The notes: a model not told the origin generated them from the sequence alone. Shown: positions 858-15,548, numbered from the stretch's first letter. The stretch: 64,000 nt of DNA from Vulcanimicrobiota bacterium (GCA_963812135.1 CAWETU010000001.1:768001-832000), one strand, 5' to 3'. Numbers and translations: made by a program.

Positions 858-2081
858 TTAGTCTCTCGATCGTTGCGCCGGCAAGAACCCTGCAAAGTCG
901 TCCGGCGAAACGTAAAGATCTGCCGCGGTCTTACCGACGAGCTGCAATTCGTCGAGGTGCGTAGCCTCAAACGGAGCAACCGCGCGCTCGTGGATGGCCT
1001 TCAACCCGAGGCGATCTAAACCTTGCCGCGACACATCGACGTTGTAGCGGACATACGTGAAGAGCTTGTCGGCGAGCGGCGCCCGGTTGTCCACGAGAGT
1101 TCCGATCTCGGAATCGAGCGCCTCGCCGTGGCGCGTCCTGCCAAAAACGCGGCACAGCATGTCCTGCTCGACCGCGGCAGCGGAGATCAGCGCGGAGGGC
1201 AAGGACTGCAGGTTGTAGAGCAGATTCATCTCATTTGCCCGCAGGCTCCGGTTGGCGCTCTCGCTCAGCCCGGTTCCCACGGAGACGAGCAACAAGTCCC
1301 GTTCGCCCGGCGGCCAGTGGACCTCATACGGCGGCAGTGTCGCCATGAGAAAGAGCAAGAAGGAAGGGTTGTTATAGACCGTCACGCCGCCGTCGATGAA
1401 AATGAATTGCTGGTCGCCCACATCGATGACCTCGGGCGGGAAGAATACCGGAGCAGCCGTGCTGGCGCGCACGAGTTGCCAGAGCGGTAGGTTCAGGTTG
1501 CAATCAGGCGATTCGAGACTGTTGAACTTCGCTCGCGGGTTGTTCGAGAGCGGCCACGGTGAATCGGTGGAGGCGTTGCGCATGACGATCAGCAGCAGGG
1601 TCCGCAGCTTGTCCGTTCCCAGTGTCGCCTCGCGCCCCGCGTCTTGGCCGATCACCGATTTTATCCGTGCCGCGAGAGCGTTGTGCGTGAACATCGACGA
1701 TGACGTCAAGATGCCCACCGTGCTCAAGAGTTTGGTGGCGGCCGAATCGGGACCGAACCGCCGCGCGGCGCGCAAAAACATGTTCGCAGGATCGAACATG
1801 TCATGGGCGGCGGTTCGAATGATTTCGCGGATCTGCGCTGCCGAGTATCCGAGGGAGACGAGCGTGGCGATGATCGCACCGGCGCTCGTGCCGGCGACGT
1901 AGTCGAAAAAATCCGCCAGGACGAGGCTGTCGCGGCCCGTCGCTTGCCGCAACAGCGTCTCCAAACGCAACAAGAACTCGACGGCGATCAATCCGCGAAT
2001 TCCACCGCCGTCTACCGAGAGAAGCCTCTTCGGACCAGGCGCGGTCAAACGCGCTTCCACCTGCGATGGCACGAACGCCAC
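858..2081 (-). CDS. Patatin-like phospholipase
   Basis: DGGGIRG oxyanion loop, GTSAG nucleophile elbow, RASTAAP motif, DGG catalytic Asp. Confidence 0.92.
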   Translation of the reverse strand: MAFVPSQVEARLTAPGPKRLLSVDGGGIRGLIAVEFLLRLETLLRQATGRDSLVLADFFDYVAGTSAGAIIATLVSLGYSAAQIREIIRTAAHDMFDPANMFLRAARRFGPDSAATKLLSTVGILTSSSMFTHNALAARIKSVIGQDAGREATLGTDKLRTLLLIVMRNASTDSPWPLSNNPRAKFNSLESPDCNLNLPLWQLVRASTAAPVFFPPEVIDVGDQQFIFIDGGVTVYNNPSFLLFLMATLPPYEVHWPPGERDLLLVSVGTGLSESANRSLRANEMNLLYNLQSLPSALISAAAVEQDMLCRVFGRTRHGEALDSEIGTLVDNRAPLADKLFTYVRYNVDVSRQGLDRLGLKAIHERAVAPFEATHLDELQLVGKTAADLYVSPDDFAGFLPAQRSRD

Positions 2082-2158
2082 GTTCGGTCATGCGGCGCTT
2101 CCCTCTTTCCAACCGGCGGGGTTCGGCGCGTTCGCTCCAGAACGCGGCCACTTTGACA

Positions 2159-3838
2159 GTGCTGCAATCGGAAGCCAAAACCACGAGGGCAGGATTCCAT
2201 GATCTGCCCTTGGTCGTCGGCGTGTCCGGGCATCGCGATCCACCGGCAGACGCCGAACCGCAGTTGCGCGAGCGCTTCGGCGAAGTTCTCGGCGGACTGG
2301 CGCATCGTTACCCGCAGATGCCCTTGCTCGTCCTTTCGGGTCTGGCTGCCGGCGCAGACATCATCGCGGCAGAAGAAGCGCTCGATCGCGGCGTCGCGGT
2401 GCTAGGCTGCCTGCCGATGCCCCAAGCGGAGTACGAAAAGGACTTCTCGCCGGAAGAGCTGCAGCGTTTTCGGCGCGTGCTGCCGCGCTGCTGGGACGTC
2501 ATCGTCGTCGGCACATCGGCCAACCGCGAGCAGAACTACGTCGATGTCGCGACGTTCATCGCCTACTATTGCCATGTGTTGGTCGCCTTTTGGGATGGCT
2601 TACCGGCGCGCGGACCCGGCGGAACCGCGGAGGTCGTCGAGCTGCGCAAAGGCGTCTTGCCGAGCGCGTTGGGCGAGACGCTGGTCGCATATCTGCCCGA
2701 CACCGGCCCGGTCTTTCAGATCGTCACGCCGCGCCGGGGACAGCCGCCGCCGCACGACAGCTTTGCCTTGCACGAGTTCTATCCGCAACGCGAGGCCCTA
2801 ACCGCACGCGATAAAGAACCCGGGACCTCGACCGGCCGGCGCGAGTTCGAAAGTGCACTGGCGCGGCTCGAGCGCTTCAATCGCGACTTAGGTACGCACG
2901 CGCCCGATGCAAAAGCGTTCACGCTGGCCGATTTTCGCGATCGCACGGACGCGGCCGCGAACAAGCTGCAAGTCGACACGTTGCGATCGGTCCAGAGCGT
3001 CTTCATAGCTACGGCGCTCGCCGCCGCCGCGCAATTGATCTTCCCGACTGACGGCTCATTCAATATTCCAAGCTGGCTCGGCATCGGCATACGCATAGGC
3101 TTTCTCATCATCGCCGTGCTCGTGCTGGCGATCGCGAAGCGCAGCGATTACGAAAATCGCTATCAAGACTACCGAGCCATCGCCGAGGCGCTTCGCGTGC
3201 AGTGCGCGTGGTGTTGCGCCGGCCTGGGCAACCGATTGGTCGAAGCGTCGTATTTGCAGATGCAGCAAAGCGAGCTGGAATGGATCCGGCTGGCGCTGCG
3301 AACGATGTACCTGATCACCGGGGCCGGCACTCCGTCGCCTGACGACTCCCCGACACATCCCGAGTGTCTACGCTGGATCGACAGCCAGATAGAGTATTAC
3401 GAGAGATCGGGGCGGCGCGAGGAACGGCAGATGCGATACGCGAGATGGGCGATGATCGCGCTACCCGTCGCAGGTGGCGTCGTCTCGGCCAGCGCGGGAG
3501 TCCTGGCCTTCATGGTCTCACACAAGGTGCTACTCGTACCGCCCGCGCAACTTGCCGACACGCTACGCGTCCTGACGTATTTGGGCACGATGCCGTTTGC
3601 GCTCGGCGGCATGCTCGCGCTGTGGATCCGCTTCTACGTCGAGCAGCGCGGATTCGCCGAGAACACGCGGCGCTACCACCACATGTACGCGGTCTTCAGC
3701 GCAGCCAAGCGGCGCCTTGTGGAACGGGCCCGCGATCCGCGCAAAGTGCTGGAAGAACTCGGCCATGAGTCGCTTTCCGAACACGCGGAGTGGCTGATCT
3801 TGCATCGCGAGCGGCCGCTGGAGTTCGTCCACACCTAA
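2159..3838 (+). CDS. SLOG-superfamily domain fused to two SLATT-like 2TM domains
   Basis: N-terminal VGVSGHRD...LSGLAAGAD...LVAFWDG...GPGGTAEVV (SLOG/YpsA-like). Two hydrophobic hairpins follow, with YQDYRAIAEALR and LGHESLSEHAEW (SLATT-like). Start uncertain (GTG 2159, TTG 2153; ORF open from 2066). Confidence 0.72.
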   Translation: MLQSEAKTTRAGFHDLPLVVGVSGHRDPPADAEPQLRERFGEVLGGLAHRYPQMPLLVLSGLAAGADIIAAEEALDRGVAVLGCLPMPQAEYEKDFSPEELQRFRRVLPRCWDVIVVGTSANREQNYVDVATFIAYYCHVLVAFWDGLPARGPGGTAEVVELRKGVLPSALGETLVAYLPDTGPVFQIVTPRRGQPPPHDSFALHEFYPQREALTARDKEPGTSTGRREFESALARLERFNRDLGTHAPDAKAFTLADFRDRTDAAANKLQVDTLRSVQSVFIATALAAAAQLIFPTDGSFNIPSWLGIGIRIGFLIIAVLVLAIAKRSDYENRYQDYRAIAEALRVQCAWCCAGLGNRLVEASYLQMQQSELEWIRLALRTMYLITGAGTPSPDDSPTHPECLRWIDSQIEYYERSGRREERQMRYARWAMIALPVAGGVVSASAGVLAFMVSHKVLLVPPAQLADTLRVLTYLGTMPFALGGMLALWIRFYVEQRGFAENTRRYHHMYAVFSAAKRRLVERARDPRKVLEELGHESLSEHAEWLILHRERPLEFVHT

Positions 3839-3950
3839 GCTCGCACCGCTTCGGTGGTTCGGCGACGGCCTTAGTCCCAGGACTCGCCCACGGGGTCATG
3901 GAAAAGGCCGCACTGAGGGCCCCTGCGTTTAGTTTATGACGTTTTAGTTT

Positions 3951-5471
3951 ATGCCTTTCCAGATCTTCGTTTCCTATGCGCGCAATGATGATTTGCCGCC
4001 GTTAGACGGCGAAGGCAAAGGCTTTGTCACGACCCTTCTCAAGCACCTCGAGTTCCATTTCACCTGCTTCGGCGAACCGACCCCGGTCGTGTGGCGCGAC
4101 AAGCGCGCGATCGCGCGCAGCGAACAGTTCGACCCTATCATCGAAAAGGGCATTCAGGAGTCGCAGCTGCTCCTCGTGGTGCTGTCCAACAACTGGATTC
4201 ACCGCGAGTTCTGCCGGCGCGAGCTCGATATGTTCGCGCAACGCTGGCACAAGGAAGGTGACGACGGCGTCAAGCGGCGGATCGTCGTCGTCGGCAAAAA
4301 TTACATCGAGCCTGCCGCGCGACCGCCGCTCTTGCAGGGGCAGGAAGGGTATTTATTCTACGCCCCGGACGACGAGAACCCGAGCCGCTATCGCGAGTTC
4401 TTCGTGCGCGGGAAGGCGCGTGAAGAATTCCACGAACACACGCAGGAACTCGCCGAGGACATCTGGCGACGCGCCTGCGAGCACGAACAAGTAGCTCCGC
4501 CCGCGTCCGGTCTCGCCGGCGCCGGCTGGGTGCCGGTGCAATCGAGCGGCAGAAAGATCTACCTGGCCAAGCCCGCCGCCGACATGCGCGCGGCATACAC
4601 CCGCCTCGTGGACGAATTGCGCCAGCGCGGATATGTGGTCGAGCCGTCGCCTGAAGCCGACATCCCCGCGGACAGCAGCGCGGCAGACTTCCTTCGCAGT
4701 TCGCTTGAAGGCACGGAGCTCTCGATCCATTTGCTGGGCGACAAGGCTGGTTGGGCGCCCGAAGACTGCGAGCCGATCGTGCCGCTGCAGTTGAAGCTGG
4801 CTGCCCAGGCGCAATCGCGCCGCATCATCTGGGCGCCGAAGATCCTCGTCGACGAACACGAGCACGCGCATGCTTCGAAGGCACGCGACCCGTTCGCCGT
4901 CCTCGACAAATTCGATCGCAAGCTCGACAACGACACGATCGACGGCAGTGAGACCAGCGCGTTCGCGCAGTTCGTCGTCCAGCATCTCGACAAGAACGCG
5001 CCGCCCGTGCCAGAAATCGAGTCGATCGACGCAAATGCCCGCGTGTATCTCTACCATCGGCCCGAAGATACGCAATACGCCGTCAAGATCGCAACGGTGC
5101 TCGCCGAACGCGGCATACAGCCGGTCTTCCCCGCGTTCGAAGGCGATCCGGCTGAGCTGGCCGCGCTCCACCGGCGGGAACTTGCCGAATGCGACGCGGT
5201 CGTGCTGTGTTGGGCCAACGCCGCCGAAGTGTGGGTCAAGAGCCAGGCGCGCGAACTCAAAAATTGGCGCGAGCTCGGCCGCGACCATGGTTTTGCGTGC
5301 CGGGGTTTGGTCGCCGGACCGCCTCCGGGTCAGCGCAAGGATCTCCTCGTGCAGTTGCCGCCGCGCAACGAAATCGACGTCGTGGTCGATCTGACCCAGT
5401 CGGAAGACTTGACGCCGGGGGCGCTCGACCCGCTCATCCGCGCCACCCAATCGCCGCAGGACGCCGCCTAG
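3951..5471 (+). CDS. Protein with three tandem TIR/TIR-like domains
   Basis: IFVSYARND...LLVVLSNNWIHREFCRREL (TIR with candidate catalytic Glu); second KIYLAKPAADM...SIHLLG (DUF4062-like); third RVYLYHRPED...CDAVVLCW. Confidence 0.82.
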   Translation: MPFQIFVSYARNDDLPPLDGEGKGFVTTLLKHLEFHFTCFGEPTPVVWRDKRAIARSEQFDPIIEKGIQESQLLLVVLSNNWIHREFCRRELDMFAQRWHKEGDDGVKRRIVVVGKNYIEPAARPPLLQGQEGYLFYAPDDENPSRYREFFVRGKAREEFHEHTQELAEDIWRRACEHEQVAPPASGLAGAGWVPVQSSGRKIYLAKPAADMRAAYTRLVDELRQRGYVVEPSPEADIPADSSAADFLRSSLEGTELSIHLLGDKAGWAPEDCEPIVPLQLKLAAQAQSRRIIWAPKILVDEHEHAHASKARDPFAVLDKFDRKLDNDTIDGSETSAFAQFVVQHLDKNAPPVPEIESIDANARVYLYHRPEDTQYAVKIATVLAERGIQPVFPAFEGDPAELAALHRRELAECDAVVLCWANAAEVWVKSQARELKNWRELGRDHGFACRGLVAGPPPGQRKDLLVQLPPRNEIDVVVDLTQSEDLTPGALDPLIRATQSPQDAA

Positions 5472-5474
5472 CAA

Positions 5475-8400
5475 ATGCGACCGTTTCCCGGACTACGGCC
5501 GTTTGATTTCGAAGACCGCGAGTTCTTTTTCGGCCGTGAGGACCAGATCTTTTCGCTGTACCGGCTGCTCGAGCACAGCCGGTTCATCGCAGTGGTCGGC
5601 AGCTCCGGCAGCGGGAAATCGTCGCTCGTGCGCGCCGGGCTGCTGCCGGTCATAGAAGAGGAAAGTCAAGGCGATGGCGGGCGCAAGTGGCGTTTCGCCA
5701 CCTTGCATCCAGGCGACGCGCCGGTCGCGGCCCTCGCTTCGGCGATCACGTCGCTGGCCCAAGGCGCCGATGAGCACGCAGAGATCAGGCACGAGCGCAC
5801 GCTCTTCGCGTTGCGCCGGTCGAGCTTCGGGCTGAGCAAGGCGGTCGACGACATCGGCGATCTGTCGGGCAAATCCGTATTGCTCGTCGTCGATCAATTC
5901 GAAGAACTGTTCCGTTACGCGACGAGCGCGACGCGCGACAGCCGCGGTAGCGCGCTCTGGCGCGACGAGGCAGCCAACTTCGTTCAATTGTTGCTCGAAG
6001 CGACGCGCAGCCGGTCGAGCTCGATCCACGTCCTCATCACCATGCGCTCGGACTTCATCGGTGATTGCGCGCAGTTCCACGGACTGCCCGAAGCGGTCAG
6101 CGCCGCGCAATTCCTCGTGCCGTCGCTCACGCGCGACCAACGGGAAGACGTCATCCGCAAACCAGTGGAGAAAGCCGGCGCAACGATCGATTCGACATTG
6201 GTCGAGATGCTGCTCAACGATGCCGGCAGCGAGACGGATCAATTACCAGTCCTGCAGCACCTCTTGTCGCGGTTATGGGATCGAGCGCAACCGGATGCCG
6301 CCGGCAACCGGCATCTCGGCCTGGACGAATATCGCGCCATCGGCAGCATCACCGGCGCGCTGTCGCAGCACGCCGATGAGGTCATGGCATCGTTGCCCGG
6401 ACTCGAGCTTGCGGTCGAGCAGACTTTTCGTGCGCTGAGCGAGGTCGATTCGGAAGGCCGCGCCACACGCCGCGCGCTGCCATATTCTCGTCTGCTTGCG
6501 GAAACGGGTGTACCTGAGGCCGACCTCGTGCGCGTGCTGGACCGCTTTCGCGCCGAAGACTGTTCGTTTATCTTGCCGCCGCCTGCCGCCGTGCCGGTGC
6601 TGCGCGGTGCCGCGCGCGTCGACGTCGTGCATGAGGCACTCTTACGCCGCTGGGAGCGGATCAGCGCCGACAAGCCGCACGTGCTCGACGGGCGGATGCA
6701 AACCGGGTGGCTAAACGCCGAGGCCGCCGACGGCAGATTCTACCGCGCGCTGCTGGCGTTATTGGAGACCGGCTCTGCCGCGACGGCGATGACGCTGCCG
6801 CTTGATCAAGTCGAAGCGCGTTGGGACTGGTGGATGTCGCGCCCGCGCACGGCGGCATGGGCCGAGCGCTATGGCGGCCGCCTTCCCAGCGTCGAGAAAC
6901 TTTTCCAGGATAGCCTTGCAGCGCTTGCGACCGAGCAAAAACGGGAAGAGGAAGCCGAACGCCGCGAACGCGAGCAAGAACGGCGCGAGATCGAAACGCA
7001 AGAAGCCGCAAAACGCGAGCGCCTCGAGCACCAAGCCGAGGTCGACCGCATGCGCGTGGAGTCGGCACAACGCCTCACGCAGCGCAGCCGCATCGCTGCC
7101 GCGGCGATGCTGGTCGTCGCGGTCCTCGCGATCGCATCGGCAGTCTTTGCCTTTCAAGAGAAAAGAGCAGCTGACGCGGGCGCACGGGCCGCGGACGCGC
7201 GGGCGGCGGCTGAAGCAGCACTGGCCACGGCACGGAAGCGAATGGCGGATTTGGGAACCGTGGCCCAAGTCGCGGCGAAGCACGCCCAGCATGAGGCGAA
7301 CGTCGCGCAGCATGAGGCGAACGTCGCCACCACCGCGCTCACCGCCGCGGAACAGCAGCGTCAGAACGCGATCGTTCAGCGAAATAATGCAAATAACCAG
7401 CGTACGATCGCGCAGGATCAGACCGCGCGAGCGCTTGCGGCGAGATCCCAAGTCTTCATGCAACGCGGTCGACAAGCATTGCTTGACGGCGACGACAACA
7501 GCGCGGCGCTCTTGCTTGCCGCCGCGTACCAAGGCGATTCATCGGATCCCGTCGTGCAATCGCTTCTGCGCCAAGCACTGGCCAAGCTGCAGATCCGGCC
7601 GACGTCCATCGACGCGCACAACAATGGATTCATCACCGCACTCGCGGTCGATCCGCATAGCCAGCGCGTTGCGACGGCGAGCACCGATGGATCGGTGAAG
7701 CTTTGGAGCGTCTCCGGCCGCCCGATCCAATCATTCCACGATCAAAACGACGTCATCACCGGGCTCGCCTTCGATCCATCCGGGAAGTACCTCGTCAGCG
7801 TCGGCCGTGACGGCACGGCGAAGCTGCACGATCTCGCCGGCCTGACCACCGGTTCGGATCCTCCCGCGATCGCATTGCTCGATGCGAAAGACAAACTCGA
7901 AGGGCACGTCGGGCGGATCAATTCAGTCGTTTTCAGTCACAACGGTGCGCGCATCTTGACATCGGGCAGCGACGGCATGGTCAAACTGTGGAATGCGGCC
8001 GACGGTAAGATGATCGCCGAATGGAGCGGTGCGTCGCCCGGCGTCGCGATCAACGACGCGATATTTAGCCGCGACGACCAGATCATCGCCGCGTGCGCCG
8101 CCGACGGGTCGGTCACGGTTTGGGACCTGACCGGCAAACAGATCAACTCGAAGACCGTCACCTCGAAGAGCCCGCTCGTGCATCTGGCGATCTCACCCAA
8201 CGGCCGGACGGTGGTCGCTGGTGCGCTCGACGGAGCGATCATCGCATTCGACTTTAACGCGCTCGCGTCGCACGAATCCAGCTATAGTCCGCCTGAGTGG
8301 CATTACCAGCATCAGGCGATCAACGCGCTTTCGTTCGACGCGACCGGCAAACGGGTGTTGAGCGGGAGCGCGGACGGCACAGTCGTTCTGCTCGACGCGG

Positions 8401-9818
8401 CGAGCGGCAGGCCGCAAGTGACGATCGCCCCCCGACCTGGTGCGCCCGCGGTCTTGACCGCCTCGTTCGATCCCGCCAGCAACGGGTTCGAGGCGACGTA
8501 CGCCGACGGCTCGCTCAATCTGTGGACGCAAGAAGGCGATCCGTTGGTGATGCTGCACGGACCCGTTGCAGTGGAAGCGCGATTCGTTCCCGACGGCAGC
8601 GCGCTTGTGACCGGAAGCGATCACGGCATCGTCGATCTGTGGCCCTTGCCGGTCACATTGAGCAAGCTTGCGGCTTCGCATCGCGCAGGCGTCGAATCGA
8701 TCGAGTTCGATCATGCCGGACACATGCTGACCGCCAGTCAAGACGGCACAGCCGCGCTGTGGCAAGCCGGGGAACAACCGCAACTCGAACGCGTTTTGCC
8801 GCACTCGCCGGGTTCGGCGTGGGTCGTCGCGGCGCGCTTCAGCAGGGACGGCAGCCGCATCGTCACGATCGGCGGCGCCACGGCGAAGATCTGGGACCTC
8901 CAGTCGGCGACCCCGCTGGCGACGATCCACACGACGGCGCAGAACAAACGTTTCATTCAAGCCGAATTCGTCGGGGGCAGCCACAACGTCATACTCGCGC
9001 AAACCGACATGGATCCGGCGACGCACGTGTACGAGACCAACGGCTGGAGGGTGTGGTCGAGCAACGGCCCGCGAGAGATCGCAAAGCAGCCCGGTTACCA
9101 ATCCGACATCCGGGAGCTGGTCCTGACGGATGACGGGAAGTACACGCTTTCAGTCAGTCAAGACGGCTACGCGTTCGTCTACGACACGAACGGACATTCG
9201 GATAACTATCAGACGTGGAAGGACGCCGCCGAGGCGATCGCCCTCGGAGACCGTTTCGTGCTTGGCGAGGCCAACGGAAACCTGCACATCATATATCCGA
9301 CTGACGCAGAGAGCCGCGGCGAGTGGTCGAGCAATGACGCGCGCGTTCTGACGCTCGCCCTATCGGCGGACCACAAGTGGCTCGTCTCTGGAGGCGCGGG
9401 CGGATCTCCGGGCGCGATCTGGGATCTCACGCAGCAACGGCATTCGCACGTTTCGCTCGGCGGCGGCGCCGGATCGATCGAATCGGCATCGTTCTCTCCC
9501 GGCGATGCGCGTTTTCTCACGGCGATTTTCTCCGACGGAACGGTGCGGTTGTGGGATCGCGAGTCGGGAAATGTCCTGGCGTCGGCGTCCGTGCCGGGCG
9601 CGCACGCAACCGCGGCGGCGTTCACACCGGACGGGTCGGCGATCATCATCGGCTCCGAGGACGGAGGCATGTATGTCTGGCGCATTCGCGGTGGCCTACC
9701 GAGCCCGAGCGACGCGGCTGCGCTTGCGCTGCGCGAGACGAACCATTCGGATATCTCCGATCCGCTGATGACCCAGGCCGTATTCACCTTGCAGCAGGCA
9801 GCGCCGCGTGCGAACTGA
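5475..9818 (+). CDS. nSTAND1 NTPase - coiled coil - TM - WD40 repeat protein (NLR-like)
   Basis: RPFPGLRPF...FFGRE, Walker A GSSGSGKSS, Walker B VVDQFEELF, ITMRSDF, LPVLQH, HEALLRRW; TM IAAAAMLVVAVLAIASAVFAF; many WD repeats (e.g. GHVGRINSVVFS...DGMVKLWN). Confidence 0.9.
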   Translation: MRPFPGLRPFDFEDREFFFGREDQIFSLYRLLEHSRFIAVVGSSGSGKSSLVRAGLLPVIEEESQGDGGRKWRFATLHPGDAPVAALASAITSLAQGADEHAEIRHERTLFALRRSSFGLSKAVDDIGDLSGKSVLLVVDQFEELFRYATSATRDSRGSALWRDEAANFVQLLLEATRSRSSSIHVLITMRSDFIGDCAQFHGLPEAVSAAQFLVPSLTRDQREDVIRKPVEKAGATIDSTLVEMLLNDAGSETDQLPVLQHLLSRLWDRAQPDAAGNRHLGLDEYRAIGSITGALSQHADEVMASLPGLELAVEQTFRALSEVDSEGRATRRALPYSRLLAETGVPEADLVRVLDRFRAEDCSFILPPPAAVPVLRGAARVDVVHEALLRRWERISADKPHVLDGRMQTGWLNAEAADGRFYRALLALLETGSAATAMTLPLDQVEARWDWWMSRPRTAAWAERYGGRLPSVEKLFQDSLAALATEQKREEEAERREREQERREIETQEAAKRERLEHQAEVDRMRVESAQRLTQRSRIAAAAMLVVAVLAIASAVFAFQEKRAADAGARAADARAAAEAALATARKRMADLGTVAQVAAKHAQHEANVAQHEANVATTALTAAEQQRQNAIVQRNNANNQRTIAQDQTARALAARSQVFMQRGRQALLDGDDNSAALLLAAAYQGDSSDPVVQSLLRQALAKLQIRPTSIDAHNNGFITALAVDPHSQRVATASTDGSVKLWSVSGRPIQSFHDQNDVITGLAFDPSGKYLVSVGRDGTAKLHDLAGLTTGSDPPAIALLDAKDKLEGHVGRINSVVFSHNGARILTSGSDGMVKLWNAADGKMIAEWSGASPGVAINDAIFSRDDQIIAACAADGSVTVWDLTGKQINSKTVTSKSPLVHLAISPNGRTVVAGALDGAIIAFDFNALASHESSYSPPEWHYQHQAINALSFDATGKRVLSGSADGTVVLLDAASGRPQVTIAPRPGAPAVLTASFDPASNGFEATYADGSLNLWTQEGDPLVMLHGPVAVEARFVPDGSALVTGSDHGIVDLWPLPVTLSKLAASHRAGVESIEFDHAGHMLTASQDGTAALWQAGEQPQLERVLPHSPGSAWVVAARFSRDGSRIVTIGGATAKIWDLQSATPLATIHTTAQNKRFIQAEFVGGSHNVILAQTDMDPATHVYETNGWRVWSSNGPREIAKQPGYQSDIRELVLTDDGKYTLSVSQDGYAFVYDTNGHSDNYQTWKDAAEAIALGDRFVLGEANGNLHIIYPTDAESRGEWSSNDARVLTLALSADHKWLVSGGAGGSPGAIWDLTQQRHSHVSLGGGAGSIESASFSPGDARFLTAIFSDGTVRLWDRESGNVLASASVPGAHATAAAFTPDGSAIIIGSEDGGMYVWRIRGGLPSPSDAAALALRETNHSDISDPLMTQAVFTLQQAAPRAN
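7287..7328 (+). repeat. 21-bp tandem duplication (QHEANVA x2) in the coiled coil of the STAND gene
   Basis: CAGCATGAGGCGAACGTCGCG followed by CAGCATGAGGCGAACGTCGCC. Confidence 0.9.
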
Positions 9819-11520
9819 GCGCTTCGGGCGAACCTTTGCCCTGCTTGCCGGCGTCGCGCTCGTATCGTGTTTGATCTGCGCACCGGTGCGAGCGTCGAGC
9901 GTACCCTTTGTGTTCACCAATGGCAATCTGCTCATTGATTTCAGCGATCTTACCACGCGCGGCGGACTCCGCATGGGGGCCTATCGCACCTATAACTCGT
10001 GGAACACCAACCTCATGGGCAGATACGGCGACGGTTGGGAAACGTCATCCGAGAGCTATCTCGTCGTTCAGGCGGACGGCTCGATCGTCGTGCACGAATT
10101 CGGCGGCGGCGCCAACAATTCGTTTACGCCGACGTCACTCGGCCGCCGCAATGCGACGGATATACTCGACGAGATCATGCGCGCCGCGCAGACGACGGGA
10201 CACTTCGGCAGCGATGCGGACCGCGCCGCGTACGAACACTGGCTCCAGAGCGACGGCAACGAAGAGGACCAGTGGCAGCATTATGTCGACCTCGGCTTGA
10301 TAAAACGGCCCGATCCCCCGGTCGGTCAGACGTTCTTCAGCAGTCAGTTCTACACCGAATACTTGACGCGGGTACCCGAAGGGTACCAACGGGAACGCCG
10401 ATTTCCAGGCAGCGTGTATTTCCAGGCCTTCAACGAGATGGGCAAGATGACCCGATGGTGGGATGCCAACGGCGATTTCATCGCGATCGACTTGACAAAG
10501 GACGGCAACTACGCGCAAGCGTCCGACAATTGGGGCGATCGATTTACGTTTTCGACGACCACCGCCGGACTCGTCACCGGCATCAGCGACTCGCAACACA
10601 TCGTGCGCTATCACTACCAAGCGGCCGCTAAGCCCTACACCGGCTCCGACCTCATGTCCGTGGACATCGACGGCAAGGTGACGCGTTATGGTTACGACGC
10701 GAAAAACCGGCTGATCGCGATTTGGTATGCCGACAACACCGCCATGCACATCACATATGATGATCTCGGGCGAGCGGCGAGCGTCAACGATGCGGACGGT
10801 ACCGTGACAAGCTATCGTTACACCATGTGCGCCACGCCGGCGTCAACCCAATGCACGTTTGAAAAAGACACGCACGCTCCCAACGGTCAGACCCACAGCG
10901 ACGTGACCGCGTTCTCGTATGACGCGGGTGGGCACAAAGAGAAAGACGTCGAGACATACGACGGCGCAGTCATCAAGACGACGGCGTATGACGGTAAGGG
11001 TCTCATCGCGTCGGTGACGACGCCGCAGGGAACGACCGAATTTGGGCGCGATTACCTTAATCGCGTGAACTTCGCACGCGTGCCGAGCGGAACGACGTAC
11101 GCGTGGCAGTACGATCCGGCGAGTCGCAGCGTCTCAATCCTCACGCGCACGACGAAAGACGGCGTCGTGGTGGAGCATTTTCAATACGATCCAAAATTCA
11201 ATCTCGTCCGGGCGTACGACAGTGCCGGCCATGACTTCTCAATCGACCACGATGCACACGGGCGTGTCGCGTCGGTCAGCGGCGGCGAGATCAGTTTGAA
11301 CTTCACCTTCTCGGATGCGCGCGCAACCAGTCCGGACAGCGTCGCGCTCGACGGGGTAGGCTCGGTGAGTCTTTCCTATGACGCCAACGGCGCCGTCGCC
11401 AAGGCGCAAAGCGCGGGCGGCGTTGAGGTCGTCGCGAAAGTCAGGGCCGTGCTGAAATCTGTTGACGACCTTATCGGGGATGCTTCTTTCCATGTGGTCA
11501 CGCTGCCCGCCGGCACATAG
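9808..11520 (+). CDS. Secreted RHS/YD-repeat protein (DUF6531-like N-terminus), no C-terminal toxin
   Basis: Signal peptide; NGNL...RTYNS...YGDGW; repeated YD motifs (YGYDAKNRL, TYDDLGR, YDAGG, YDGKG); overlaps the STAND stop by 11 nt. Confidence 0.8.
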   Translation: MRTERFGRTFALLAGVALVSCLICAPVRASSVPFVFTNGNLLIDFSDLTTRGGLRMGAYRTYNSWNTNLMGRYGDGWETSSESYLVVQADGSIVVHEFGGGANNSFTPTSLGRRNATDILDEIMRAAQTTGHFGSDADRAAYEHWLQSDGNEEDQWQHYVDLGLIKRPDPPVGQTFFSSQFYTEYLTRVPEGYQRERRFPGSVYFQAFNEMGKMTRWWDANGDFIAIDLTKDGNYAQASDNWGDRFTFSTTTAGLVTGISDSQHIVRYHYQAAAKPYTGSDLMSVDIDGKVTRYGYDAKNRLIAIWYADNTAMHITYDDLGRAASVNDADGTVTSYRYTMCATPASTQCTFEKDTHAPNGQTHSDVTAFSYDAGGHKEKDVETYDGAVIKTTAYDGKGLIASVTTPQGTTEFGRDYLNRVNFARVPSGTTYAWQYDPASRSVSILTRTTKDGVVVEHFQYDPKFNLVRAYDSAGHDFSIDHDAHGRVASVSGGEISLNFTFSDARATSPDSVALDGVGSVSLSYDANGAVAKAQSAGGVEVVAKVRAVLKSVDDLIGDASFHVVTLPAGT

Positions 11521-11534
11521 AACCCCTCACAGCT

Positions 11535-12713
11535 TCACGCCGGTTTCGGGCTGGTCTGACCAAATCGATCGGACCAGTCGATGCGCGCCGTCAGCTGCAT
11601 GGTGAGGAACAGTGTGATGATCGCGCCGATGGTGATGGCAAGTCCGCTCGTCCCCTCATTGAACAGCGCGAGCGAGAAGAGGATCAGGTAGAATACCTGG
11701 GCGAGGCCTGCCTCTACCGCCGCAAAGCGCAATCCGACGACGAGCCGCAGGTACGTGATCGTAAGGAACATCGAAACAACCGAGCAGATCGCGAACGCCG
11801 TGCCGATGGGCAAGCGATCGACCGTGTACGCGAAAAGCAGATGGAACGAGAAGAACGCCGCGGCTAAGAAGAAATAGTTCATCGGGTGGAGCTCGATCCG
11901 GCGTATCGTCGTGATGACGAAGATAACGAAGAAGTAGAACAACAGCGAGAGCGGCGCCCAGAACGTGATACGCTGCGCGAGCGGCCCCGGTTGCAGATGC
12001 TCGGGCAATCGCATGCCGATGCCGTAGCCGGCCACGAGATCGCGGTAGCTCCACACAAGATCCCAGCCGCTTGCCGTCTTGCGCTCAGTGGTCGGCGTCA
12101 ATGTGCCCTCGGGAAAGTCGATCGCGTCGAAATCGGTACGCATGGTCAGAACGAAGTCGCGCACCACGTTCACGCCAGGCCCGAACTTGTACGACCACCG
12201 GCCGACGCCGTGCGACCTGTAGGATACGACGACGTCAGCTGCACGACCGGGTGCCACGGGGATGTCGAGATCGATGACCCCGATCGCAGCGGGATCGGTG
12301 ACGGGTGCGCCGTTGACGAGCACTTTGACGTCATCGTACACGGCGTTGTCGGCAGGCAAACGCAGCTGAAACCCCACGCGCTGACCGTTGCCGTTGTTCA
12401 CCACCCGATACGCGCCCGAAAAATCGACGCGATAGGTGTTGAACCAGATCAACCCCTTCCGGCGTTGGTCGAGCGCAAGCGCGACACCGATGGTACTGGC
12501 GTCGGGTGGTTTGTTGAGGATCAGCTTGCCCTGCGTGACCGAGAAGATCGGGGCGCTTTGCGTCTGCTCGGGCAACCATAACGTCCCTATCGCTCGCCGC
12601 TGCGTTTCGCCGGCTTGCTCAGATCGATACAGCAGCGTGGCGCCGAGAACCATCCATGCCGCGGTCGCCCCGATCCAGATGAGGATCAACGCTGCGATGC
12701 GCAACGCCATCAT
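11535..12713 (-). CDS. Inner membrane CreD-like protein
   Basis: N-terminal TM, extracytoplasmic domain with RRKGLIWFNTY, C-terminal multi-TM block with LHPMNYFFLAAAFFSFHLL. Confidence 0.75.
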   Translation of the reverse strand: MMALRIAALILIWIGATAAWMVLGATLLYRSEQAGETQRRAIGTLWLPEQTQSAPIFSVTQGKLILNKPPDASTIGVALALDQRRKGLIWFNTYRVDFSGAYRVVNNGNGQRVGFQLRLPADNAVYDDVKVLVNGAPVTDPAAIGVIDLDIPVAPGRAADVVVSYRSHGVGRWSYKFGPGVNVVRDFVLTMRTDFDAIDFPEGTLTPTTERKTASGWDLVWSYRDLVAGYGIGMRLPEHLQPGPLAQRITFWAPLSLLFYFFVIFVITTIRRIELHPMNYFFLAAAFFSFHLLFAYTVDRLPIGTAFAICSVVSMFLTITYLRLVVGLRFAAVEAGLAQVFYLILFSLALFNEGTSGLAITIGAIITLFLTMQLTARIDWSDRFGQTSPKPA

Positions 12714-12714
12714 G

Positions 12715-12770
12715 TTTACTTTGCCTCACAAAGTCAATGTCTTGCTTTACTTTGTACCACAAAGTCAATG
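12715..12770. promoter_or_regulatory. Two tandem palindromic operators ACTTTG-N5-CAAAGT (25-bp direct repeat, 31-bp period) upstream of the creD-like gene
   Basis: TTTACTTTGCCTCACAAAGTCAATG (12715-12739) and TTTACTTTGTACCACAAAGTCAATG (12746-12770); on the minus strand they contain TTGACT and the GAGG SD. Confidence 0.75.
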
Positions 12771-12821
12771 GCAGCGCAAGAGCGAAGTTGACGCTCCGAG
12801 GCTTTCCGACGACGATTTCGG

Positions 12822-14093
12822 CTAGCGGACTAAGCGGAACTTCGCATAGACGTACGGATAATTGGGCCGGAACCAGTTGCGCAGGCTCCGCCGGATGAGC
12901 TCGCGCGCGGTCACCGCCGAGGCGCCCTTCATCACGAAGTGCTCGCCGTCGAAGAAGTCGGCCGAGTAGCCCGGATACGACTGCATGCGCTCGAAGCCGG
13001 GCAGCGGTCCGAACACGGTCGACGTCCACTCCCAGCCGTTGCCGACAAGATCCTCGACGCCCCACGCGCTCGCGCCCGCCGGGTGAGAACCTGCGTCGAC
13101 CGGATCGAAGCGATCGAAACCGAAGTTGCCGTGCTCCGATGACGGCGCCGCATCGCCCCAGGGTTGGCTGCGTTCGGATCCATCGGGAGTCCCATACGCC
13201 GCGCGATGGAACTCAGGCTCGGTCATCAGCCGCGCGCCGCGCCACGCCGCGTACTTGCTCGCCTGCTCTTGCGAGACATAGACGGGCCACGCGGGCGGAA
13301 GCGGCAGTTCTTCGAACATCGCGACCTGCATCCAGCGCCCATCGCGTTTGACCCAGAACGCCGGCGCTTCGCCGCCGCCTTGCTCGACGAACTCGAGCCA
13401 GTCCGCATTGGTGACGCTGTGCTTGTCGATCTCAAATGCCGGCACGTCGACTTCGAGCGTACGAAACTCGTTATCCCAACCGAACTCGACGTTTTCGGGC
13501 GACGCGCCCAGCGTCGCACGGCCTGCGGGCACGCGTATGCGAGCCTTTTCCGGCGGCGCTCCTCCGGCGACGGGTCTGACGCTGCCCGCGGGTGCGCGCT
13601 TTTCCGCCAACGGCACGCGATGCAACATGTACAGCAGCGTCTCGTGATGCATCGGTTCGTGTTCCAAGATGGTGTAGATCGCTTCTTTGACGCGCGGCGT
13701 GACCGAACGCGGGTCGGCGTCCGCCTTGCGCAAGATCTCACGCACCGCGGCATCCCACTTGGCTGCCATCGCCTGCACCTCAGCACGCGACGGCCACTGC
13801 TGCGGCGCGCTTTTTTGTGCAGCGTCGGCACTGCTAGGATCGATGCCGCGATAGAACAGCCGCTCCAAGCCCTCGTCGATGGCCGCGACGCCGACCGCAT
13901 CTTTGGCGAGCGTGATGAAACTGAACGCGGGGATGTGCCCCTCGTAGAACCGGACCGGGTGGCGCAGTGGGATCGGTCGCGAGTCGTACGCCTCGGGCGT
14001 GACCATGTCGAACAGCGACGCCGAGCGGCGCCGGTTCTCATCATACCACTGTGTGAAACTCGACCGGCCGGTGGTCGCGAGCGTGACGGCCAT
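12822..14093 (-). CDS. SUMF1/EgtB/OvoA-family non-heme iron sulfoxide synthase (DinB-like + FGE-sulfatase domains)
   Basis: LRHPVRFYEGH and EHEPMHHE iron ligands; FGWDNE, LVGNGWEWT, RNWFRPNYPY; ATG 14093 with GGAG SD. Confidence 0.85.
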   Translation of the reverse strand: MAVTLATTGRSSFTQWYDENRRRSASLFDMVTPEAYDSRPIPLRHPVRFYEGHIPAFSFITLAKDAVGVAAIDEGLERLFYRGIDPSSADAAQKSAPQQWPSRAEVQAMAAKWDAAVREILRKADADPRSVTPRVKEAIYTILEHEPMHHETLLYMLHRVPLAEKRAPAGSVRPVAGGAPPEKARIRVPAGRATLGASPENVEFGWDNEFRTLEVDVPAFEIDKHSVTNADWLEFVEQGGGEAPAFWVKRDGRWMQVAMFEELPLPPAWPVYVSQEQASKYAAWRGARLMTEPEFHRAAYGTPDGSERSQPWGDAAPSSEHGNFGFDRFDPVDAGSHPAGASAWGVEDLVGNGWEWTSTVFGPLPGFERMQSYPGYSADFFDGEHFVMKGASAVTARELIRRSLRNWFRPNYPYVYAKFRLVR

Positions 14094-14193
14094 GGGAACT
14101 CTCCAATCTTGACCCGCTTGATACAAGAAACGGCTTGCGGGCACGGGTACGTTTACCCTCCACTTCGCGGGCCTACGCGCGGTCCGTACTATA

Positions 14194-14895
14194 CTACTGG
14201 ATAGAGGCGACCAAGAACGGTTTCGTCGTCGGCGCCTGCGAGCCGCCGTCAGGTTCAACCGTCACCGCGACCGTCAGTCCTTTTTCTGCGCCCACCGGCA
14301 GCACGACGCTCGCGTCGCCGTTCGCGTCCGGTTTGAACGTCGGCGCCGGCGTGGGTTTTGCGCCCGCTCTGATGTACCACGCTTGATAGACCTTGCCCGA
14401 CGGCGCCGGTTGGAAACCGTGCGCTTCGAGTCGCAGTGTGCCTCCCGCAGCGACGACGCGTCCGCTGATCCCGCATGGCTCGACCGAAGTGCATGCGACG
14501 GCCCAGCTGCGCGCGCCGAACTTGCCCGATTCGATCGCCCACGTCGTCGCGAAGACGATCAGCACCACCGCCGCCGCGGCGGCGAGCCAACCGGGTTGTC
14601 TCCAAAACGCCGGCCGCATGGGGATGACGCGAGGCGCTGGTTGCGATGTGGACGACGTTTGGGGCGCGGGCTTCGTCTTCGCGATCGCCAGCACGCGCTC
14701 GCGCAGACCGGGTGGCGGCGGCTCGGCAACGCTGGCGGCCAATGCGAATGCGGCGAGGCGGCCGCGCATGAGCGCTTCTCGGCAACCTGGATCTTTGAGA
14801 TATGCTTCGACCGCGGCTCGCTCTTCCGGCTCGAGCCCGCCCAGCGCATAAAGTTCGGCGAGCTCGCGCATGGCCTGGTCGCGCTCGTCCATCAT
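14194..14895 (-). CDS. Anti-sigma factor, RskA family
   Basis: ELYALGGL...PPPGLRERVL, TM WLAAAAAVV, YQAW, AVTVEPDGGS..PT; ATGA overlap with the sigma gene. Confidence 0.88.
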   Translation of the reverse strand: MMDERDQAMRELAELYALGGLEPEERAAVEAYLKDPGCREALMRGRLAAFALAASVAEPPPPGLRERVLAIAKTKPAPQTSSTSQPAPRVIPMRPAFWRQPGWLAAAAAVVLIVFATTWAIESGKFGARSWAVACTSVEPCGISGRVVAAGGTLRLEAHGFQPAPSGKVYQAWYIRAGAKPTPAPTFKPDANGDASVVLPVGAEKGLTVAVTVEPDGGSQAPTTKPFLVASIQ

Positions 14896-15428
14896 GTCGT
14901 TTGTACCTCGCCGAGCGCGTCCATCAGACGTCGCAGGCCCGCGCGGATGCGGCTCTTGATCGTGCCGAGCGGCGCGCCGAGCTTCTCCGCGACCTCGCGA
15001 TAGGAGAGCCCGTCGAAAAACGCACGCTCGATCGCCTCGCGCTGATCGGGCGGCAACGTGCGCAGCGCGTCGCCGACCGCGGCCGCCCGCACGCGTTCGA
15101 ACACTTCATCATCGATATCGGTCAGCGCCGGCAAGTCGGTGGGCATCTCAGGTTCACGCGTGCGCACCGCCGCGCTCCGCAAGACGTCGATCGACGCATT
15201 GCGCGCCACGGTCGCCACCCACGCGGCGAAATTGCCGCCTTGGAACGACGCCGGCCGCGACCAGATCTGTAAGAACACGGATTGGGCGACGTCTTCAGCT
15301 TGCGTCGCATTGCCCAGCATCCGCCGCGCGACGCCGAAGACGAGCGCCGCGTGACGATCGTACAGCTGCGCGAAGGCGTCTGCATCGCCGCGGCGCACAC
15401 GCTCGATCAGCGCAGCATCGTCACCCAT
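14892..15428 (-). CDS. ECF sigma-70 factor (SigK-like)
   Basis: AFAQLYDRH, AEDVAQSVF, VARNASIDVLR, LGTIKSRIRAGL; alternative start ATG 15536. Confidence 0.92.
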   Translation of the reverse strand: MGDDAALIERVRRGDADAFAQLYDRHAALVFGVARRMLGNATQAEDVAQSVFLQIWSRPASFQGGNFAAWVATVARNASIDVLRSAAVRTREPEMPTDLPALTDIDDEVFERVRAAAVGDALRTLPPDQREAIERAFFDGLSYREVAEKLGAPLGTIKSRIRAGLRRLMDALGEVQTT

Positions 15429-15548
15429 GTAGCCGCGCGGTTCGCGCGCGAAAGACGCATCGCCTGGTGTGCCCGACGCTGCTGGCCACCAGATTCCAAG
15501 CAGCATCCTACGATGCGCGACTCCGATCGTGCACATAACTATAAGAAG

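Follow-up and report, generated by a model that had tools for sequence, protein, structure and literature searches.

A SLOG-SLATT_3-SLATT_1 fusion protein of Vulcanimicrobiota, a candidate Thoeris-like receptor-effector genomically coupled to TIR genes

In Pfam, SLATT_3-SLATT_1 proteins are described as associated with TIR or SLOG domains, and Burroughs et al. in 2015 reportedly predicted effectors of this kind, with the same associations, that would form a nucleotide-regulated pore. In plants, TIR-NLRs signal to helper channels. The accessible sections of two papers, relying on Burroughs 2015, treat SLATT as a predicted membrane effector regulated by ADPr derivatives or by nucleotides (PMC9503650, PMC7159879). 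The closest described system is type VII Thoeris, in which, according to the available part of the source, ThsB (TIR) and ThsH (SLATT) defend the cell and signal with cADPR, ThsH being proposed as a signal-gated membrane oligomer (bioRxiv 10.64898/2025.12.03.692087). The same part reports a Thoeris survey with 29 effector types, from which the TIRs of Avs proteins were removed; bacterial STAND/NLR-like TIRs, commonly assumed to be NAD+-consuming killers, were set aside there (10.64898/2025.12.03.692087). From partial texts, the SLOG domain of type I ThsA binds 3'cADPR (10.1101/2022.05.07.491051; 10.64898/2026.03.01.708072), that of type III Thoeris is of the SMF/DprA type (PMC13276650), and SLATT also occurs in DRT10 (10.64898/2026.04.29.721553). 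YpsA of B. subtilis (PDB 2nx2) is a stand-alone soluble SLOG protein tied to gpsB, for which the accessible text gives no known ligand (PMC6459960).

The window analysed here is a stretch of 64,000 nucleotides from Vulcanimicrobiota bacterium (GCA_963812135.1, CAWETU010000001.1:768001-832000). At 2159-3838 (+) it holds an intact open frame, closed by a TAA codon (3836-3838), for a SLOG-SLATT_3-SLATT_1 protein. We propose, at roughly even odds, that this protein is a Thoeris-like receptor-effector that is gated at the membrane by a TIR-made signal as part of an immune response. The frame specifies 559 amino acids from the GTG at 2159, from which residues are numbered throughout, and 590 from the ATG at 2066. 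In an alignment with seven close relatives, the column of their ATG or GTG start falls on ACG 2183 (2183-2185), and the true start is either GTG 2159 or this non-canonical ACG; residues 1-8 have pLDDT values below 50 in the AlphaFold2 model. A contig of run X1, which may be the source sample, reads 1900-2775 identically, including the ACG, and in 19 of the 20 sequencing runs the share was at most 0.20. No sigma-70-like promoter or terminator was seen in 1900-4100. In metatranscriptome X18, contigs of a close relative, which are no proof of transcription, cover both the SLOG-SLATT gene and the TIR gene.

The family is large, with 6535 cluster representatives at E <=0.001 and 802 at E <1e-30, the best 150 of them mostly near-full-length matches, and it is covered by no model in Pfam, NCBIfam or PADLOC. 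Unnamed clusters of the ESM Atlas were also matched, and in some of these a minority of the members carry DUF4231, SLATT_1 or SLATT_3. No relatives were found in the viral contigs searched, and a search of longer proteins returned no fused form among 8000 candidates, which is weak evidence. Apparent fusions of 730-770 amino acids in L087, L093, L096 and L109 were rejected as TIR fusions, the TIR being a separate overlapping ORF. Two loci (L141:8286-11544 and L063:9920-15837) carry two SLOG-SLATT copies each, and L063 has many frame breaks, probably errors of long-read assembly.

The AlphaFold2 model of the protein, built on a 129-sequence alignment (pLDDT 93.1, pTM 0.92), comprises a SLOG domain and a helical membrane part and nothing else. 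The SLOG domain spans residues ~16-245 (2204-2893, +) as judged from fold match and conserved motifs. Among solved structures it comes closest to B. subtilis YpsA (Foldseek E 2.6e-4), with Z 14.6 and rmsd 2.7 over 159 aligned residues for the whole model, and Z 15.9 and rmsd 2.9 over 162 for the domain alone. For the domain alone YpsA is followed by DprA (Z 12.1), ShosA (11.5) and then LOG-type proteins, and the top 37 rows of the fold list are SLOG-family chains, which places the domain in the SLOG superfamily. An N-terminal SLOG fold with a pocket, as claimed by the sequence-only reading, is borne out; its further suggestion of a sensor of the type I ThsA kind has to be replaced by a YpsA-like domain, ThsA (6lhx) standing at rank 41 with Z 7.3 and rmsd 3.6 over 120 aligned residues. 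PADLOC likewise found no ThsA match, and the domain is not a STALD-type SLOG as in type I.

The motifs of the putative pocket (G-x-T-G-H-R, A-x-G-A-D, W-D-G and G-G-T) are near-invariant in the 129 homologues; the conserved residues are G21-x-T/S-G24-H25-R26, A63-x-G65-A66-D67, P86, Y92/D95/F96, R123/Y127, W145-D-G, G154-G-T156 and R192. Over 116 proteins, an average of 20-23 of 24 chosen pocket positions carry the consensus residue in every class of partner. G-x-D is named as the YpsA substrate-binding signature in the accessible part of PMC6459960, and the GxD/E signature is kept here (G65 in 127 and D67 in 124 of 129 homologues), which together with the nearest fold assigns the domain to the YpsA clade. 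Since the Pfam YpsA model matched neither the protein nor the family members scanned, it is a divergent YpsA branch at most; identity to YpsA is 14-16%, and the domain is fused to membrane units. Pfam also gave weak matches to DprA (25 of 115 members) and YAcAr (13 of 115). Type III Thoeris likewise combines several TIR domains with a SLOG effector of non-STALD type; its SLOG is described, in a partial text, as SMF/DprA-type, DprA is the second-ranking fold here after YpsA, and the protein may overlap with that type. As the domain is nearest to YpsA and only distantly like ThsA, 3'cADPR should not be assumed as its ligand, and this distance from a SLOG of known ligand counts against the receptor proposed here. 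TRPM chains (Z ~7-7.6) also place a SLOG-type domain before a membrane channel, which is an analogy only, as nothing in their membrane part points to common ancestry.

Two SLATT-like units make up the remainder of the protein. The first (SLATT_3/DUF4231-like; 2942-3334, +) contains TM1 (~277-296) and TM2 (~307-325), followed by conserved helices with DYRAxAExLRVQxxW and WIR, and the second (SLATT_1-like; 3350-3835, +) contains TM3 (~433-451) and TM4 (~471-490) and the C-terminal motif ELGxEALxExxxWxxxHRERP. Pfam DUF4231, which we take to be a SLATT family, exceeds its cut-off in the query (27.7 against 24.7 bits); the SLATT_3 and SLATT_1 matches lie under their curated cut-offs, which again counts against the proposal. 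These models recur in the family, with DUF4231 in 70, SLATT_1 in 33 and SLATT_3 in 23 of 119 members by Pfam, and SLATT_1 in 69 and SLATT_3 in 67 by NCBIfam. Hydropathy peaks cluster at four places across the 129 homologues. At a threshold of 1.6, four hydrophobic segments are called in 52, three in 56 and two in 17 of them; the fourth helix is below this threshold in the query and has a peak in 106 homologues. An internal duplication of the units was considered and dropped, the profile comparison giving a probability of 9.6 and the units resembling different SLATT families. Sequence searches of PDB returned nothing useful, and compared with solved folds the membrane part matched generic helical bundles only (Z <=8.5).

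Two SLATT-like membrane units without a SIR2 effector had been predicted from the sequence, and both points hold: neither SIR2 nor Macro was matched in Pfam, NCBIfam or PADLOC. The likeness then drawn to the membrane output of type II ThsA did not last, the closer precedent being type VII Thoeris (TIR and SLATT) and not a Macro and TM protein. As in type VII, a TIR gene with a catalytic Glu is adjacent to the gene of a SLATT effector, with the SLATT_3 and SLATT_1 matches here below cut-off; unlike in type VII, there are two SLATT units and a fused SLOG pocket, and the partners are large sensor-TIRs that are often NLR-like or unlinked. Like type I ThsA (SIR2-SLOG), the protein fuses a SLOG-superfamily pocket to an output domain and is coupled to TIR, but it has no SIR2, its SLOG is N-terminal and YpsA-like, and its output is membrane helices. 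Type II Thoeris (TM with a Macro sensor) differs in that no Macro match or fold is present here, and the protein lies outside both types. With the effectors reportedly predicted in 2015, as cited second-hand, it shares the tandem SLATT_3/SLATT_1, the association with SLOG and TIR and a predicted nucleotide-regulated pore, the SLOG here being fused in one chain. The pairing of TIR with SLATT is already validated, according to the available part of the type VII source, and the putative receptor with its fused SLOG and two SLATT units is best seen as a variant of this known kind, which most likely works in the manner of a Thoeris effector and may belong to type III or type VII. Our full-text literature search found no description or test of a SLOG-SLATT-SLATT fusion, which Burroughs 2015/2020, the type III primary paper, or Fig. 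1C/Table S1 of 10.64898/2025.12.03.692087 may list.

One clade of homologues has lost the SLOG motifs and kept the SLATT motifs (L060, L061, L062 and L149, and partly L057). Their genes (L060:8589-9980, L061:5285-6191, L062:3024-4835, L149:7592-8980 and that of L057) adjoin those of MAP3K_TRAF_bd/TPR-S proteins. Possibly this clade has switched to another signal enzyme, or its SLATT units are activated independently of SLOG. Its retention of the SLATT motifs counts against a SLOG-gated receptor and fits a different division of labour, in which the SLATT units sense the messenger, as proposed for ThsH, and the SLOG enzymatically breaks down or edits the signal, thereby setting a threshold or acting as an off-switch. 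Five Arg residues on the SLATT cytoplasmic helices (R339, R346, R377, R550 and R552) are invariant or nearly so, and in the available part of 10.64898/2025.12.03.692087 the model of ThsH has charged pockets where SLATT protomers meet. Many SLOG relatives in the fold list, moreover, are LOG or PpnN hydrolases, and the pocket retains the polar residues H25, R26 and D67. We nevertheless regard this arrangement as unlikely: the degenerate clade adjoins a different predicted signal enzyme (the MAP3K_TRAF_bd proteins), YpsA-like SLOGs are said to include cADPR sensors in the accessible text of PMC9503650, and the full-length pTM of 0.92 suggests that SLOG and SLATT domains pack together.

The SLOG-SLATT gene belongs to a cassette of six. 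At one end, as the last cassette gene on that side, a protein (1-979, -) that belongs to no Pfam family and has a signal-like N-terminus continues beyond the window (767531-768979 of contig C1, genome G000); in many Vulcanimicrobiota loci it accompanies the patatin and SLOG-SLATT genes. The patatin-like phospholipase gene (858-2081, -), with DGGG, GTSAG and DGG motifs, is divergent from the SLOG-SLATT gene. Directly after the latter comes a tandem-TIR protein of 506 amino acids (3951-5471, +), whose N-terminal TIR has Glu91 at the catalytic position, whose C-terminal TIR has Tyr for the first-strand Ser, and whose middle domain is DUF4062-like in homologue L147. PADLOC matches it to ThsB1 only at E 0.0075, and it shows weak FxsC-like similarity; active and inactive TIRs of FxsC type occur with STAND modules in the accessible part of 10.64898/2026.10.19.760177.

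The next gene (5475-9818, +) encodes an NTPase of the type named nSTAND1 in the available text of PMC8195603, with WD40 propellers, Walker A and B motifs at 42 and 140, respectively, and a single TM helix at 540-558, so that the propellers are probably outside the membrane. It differs from an Avs/AVAST-type NLR in that nSTAND1 begins at residue 3, the TIR is encoded in a separate gene, and the NTPase is separated from WD40 by a TM helix, unlike the cytoplasmic sensor of that type. An RHS/YD-repeat protein (9808-11520, +), whose N-terminus has a hydrophobic stretch resembling a signal, completes the cassette.

Four close relatives (L031-L034) have all six genes in this order, with an insertion after the SLOG-SLATT gene in L032. 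In G227, of the same genus, the flanking ketoacyl synthase and creD genes are adjacent, some 40 bases apart as against ~12 kb here, and the cassette is therefore accessory. Its GC is like that of the surroundings, and no integrase or other defence genes were found among the flanking ORFs scanned; both points count against an immune receptor. Beyond the cassette, a stretch kept in G227 (11535-15536, -) holds a creD-like gene and a DinB_2/FGE-sulfatase gene, together with what we take to be an ECF sigma and anti-sigma pair.

The TIR neighbours of homologues are diverse. They include TIR-NB-ARC-TPR, tandem TIR with nSTAND1-WD40, TIR-TM, TIR-TPR, TIR-FGE-sulfatase and TIR-STING proteins, and further neighbours are multi-TM proteins with a C-terminal TIR (CHASE2-type), short TIRs beside Tll0287-HAMP, and DUF4062-NACHT-TPR proteins. 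Among 80 TIR domains aligned from SLOG-SLATT loci, 76 carry Glu in the catalytic column. In a FastTree tree of 116 rows (loci L031-L150, near-complete and non-identical proteins only), 67 rows are labelled with a TIR partner; TIR linkage occurs in many clades, and by heuristic labels the type of partner changed 20 times or more. The small TIR profile used missed real TIR neighbours (L110, L128, L129), and the "none" labels are thus overcounted. The commonest labelled partner is an NLR-like TIR-NTPase-repeat protein (22 of 67), and a patatin gene is present in 20 of 80 loci. Two stretches (L151:1-11500 and L152:1750-5243, of genomes G321 and G309) hold tandem arrays of TIR-TPR proteins of ~580 amino acids that are 37-79% identical.

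Several neighbourhoods stand apart. A unit of Tll0287-HAMP, short TIR and SLOG-SLATT genes is conserved in Steroidobacteraceae and related proteobacterial bins (L087, L093, L096, L101, L103, L104, L106, L107 and L109), and looks like environmental sensing. In Pelotomaculum a TIR-STING gene lies directly upstream of the SLOG-SLATT homologue (L110:1458-2522). Elsewhere the neighbours include an ion-channel gene (L088:11783-12646), a TrkA-N protein (L097:7858-9711) and adenylate/guanylate cyclase-domain proteins (L064:7825-9717; L076:5911-9225). Loci L125, L128, L130 and L131 share one chromosomal site, presumably marked by scpA-like and endonuclease IV-like genes, and a TIR-NB-ARC-TPR gene is present there in L128 and absent from the other three.

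Partners of this kind might also be the killers themselves. TIR-STAND proteins are generally regarded as NADase effectors, and were excluded as such from the Thoeris survey in the available part of its source (10.64898/2025.12.03.692087); plain ADP-ribose is a TIR product, and the SLOG-SLATT protein could have an accessory part, responding to bulk ADP-ribose or to the loss of NAD+ or binding the TIR directly, with no dedicated messenger. A self-sufficient killer, however, would not require near-obligate co-occurrence with one receptor, and the partner TIRs are of several sequence groups and architectures, which argues against a fixed protein contact. We rate this explanation as improbable.

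The gene is carried by 92 of 301 genomes of the phylum (including the unpublished G247) and by two of five in the genus, a patchy carriage as with accessory defence genes. In G000 the only ORF matched by a TIR profile is the tandem-TIR gene directly after SLOG-SLATT. TIR_2 was found in 79 of the 80 carriers searched, the other 12 being mostly fragmentary or weak matches plus G247, as against 17 of 80 non-carriers searched out of 209 (including the unpublished G128, a positive); in the two families that contain carriers, 5 of 23 non-carriers had it. Counted from the 150 matches listed, besides which there are 67 weaker ones, a TIR_2 match lies within 10 kb of SLOG-SLATT in at least 51 of 80 carriers, where uniform placement predicts 1.54; in carriers with a single TIR_2 it lies no more than 6 kb away in 20 of 26, among the matches listed. 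In a second class (101 genomes, around G318 with locus L082, Kapaibacterium), 17 genomes are carriers, 15 of them with full-length genes, and TIR_2 is present in 13 of 17 carriers versus 19 of 84 non-carriers. Five or more TIR_2 matches occur in 10 of the 17 carriers, which have 5 to 27 each (27 in G406), versus none of the 84 non-carriers, and the receptor gene in loci of this lineage stands amid housekeeping genes, the TIR genes being arranged in the tandem TIR-TPR arrays of the two stretches examined (L151 and L152). The second-class genomes may represent only one or two clades, so that these counts are not independent trials, and non-independence among kin means that the co-occurrence counts in general overstate statistical strength. 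The functional link to TIR enzymes that had been suggested from the sequence is now supported by neighbourhood and by presence/absence counts.

Some observations count against a receptor for TIR products. TIR_2 matches are absent from carrier G227, from 8 of 32 genomes (orphan carriers) and from 3 of the 15 full-length second-class carriers (G303, G412 and G421); only 16 of 47 loci in L064-L110 have a TIR in the locus, and many SLOG-SLATT copies stand among housekeeping genes. Orphan carriers may be incomplete genomes, or may have TIRs missed by the TIR_2 model. Taken with the other neighbours, which include cyclases and STING-TIR, they would also fit a protein that is independent of TIR and responds to another nucleotide ligand, its linkage reflecting co-transfer on islands. 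We consider this very improbable, as the co-occurrence holds for unlinked genes, all 10 genomes with at least five TIR_2 matches in the second class are carriers, and the linkage recurs in many clades.

From what is observed, namely the fold, the conservation of the pocket, the four membrane helices and the tight genomic coupling to TIRs with a catalytic Glu, we infer every causal step of the following receptor circuit. A sensor would be triggered, here the membrane-anchored nSTAND1-WD40 protein and elsewhere TIR-NB-ARC-TPR, TIR-TPR or membrane TIR proteins. The TIR would then turn NAD+ into an ADP-ribose-type messenger, not necessarily 3'cADPR, which would bind the YpsA-like SLOG pocket. The SLATT_3-SLATT_1 helices would in turn oligomerise or open and thus permeabilise or depolarise the inner membrane, and this immune response would arrest or kill the cell. 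A second effector of the same signal may be the patatin encoded next to it.

The same gating by a messenger could instead serve a regulated, non-lethal flux of ions or solutes in the sensing of environment or envelope. A number of the partners sit in the membrane and have extracytoplasmic parts (TIR-TM, CHASE2-type TM-TIR, Tll0287-HAMP and the STAND protein with outside WD40), the receptor keeps fixed housekeeping sites in some lineages while the TIR genes vary, and the absence of relatives from the viral contigs and of a defence island from the flanks point the same way. On the other hand, the commonest labelled partner (22 of 67) is NLR-like, the TIR-TPR arrays with their 37-79% identity, the patatin in 20 of 80 loci and the patchy carriage look immune, and the SLATT systems tested so far are anti-phage. 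A non-lethal role therefore seems to us doubtful beside an abortive immune response.

The pattern of one receptor and many TIR sensors is the part of the finding most worth testing. Tentatively, and with less than an even chance of being right, we suggest that each genome has one copy of a receptor-channel, which detects one and the same NAD-derived messenger from many diversified NLR-like TIR sensors, even unlinked ones. In that case TIR-NLRs of bacteria, like those of plants, would act through a separate executor in the membrane and would not kill by depleting NAD+, and the YpsA-type pocket may recognise an undescribed messenger; the likeness to the plant pathway, in which many TIR sensors feed one membrane output through a helper channel, is an analogy only. 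An unmodelled family of 802 representatives that tracks NLR-like TIRs closely, with one pocket, makes the question of the second messenger directly testable. If the proposal is true, YpsA-type SLOG domains would gain their first ligand, and channels gated by a SLOG domain a bacterial model.
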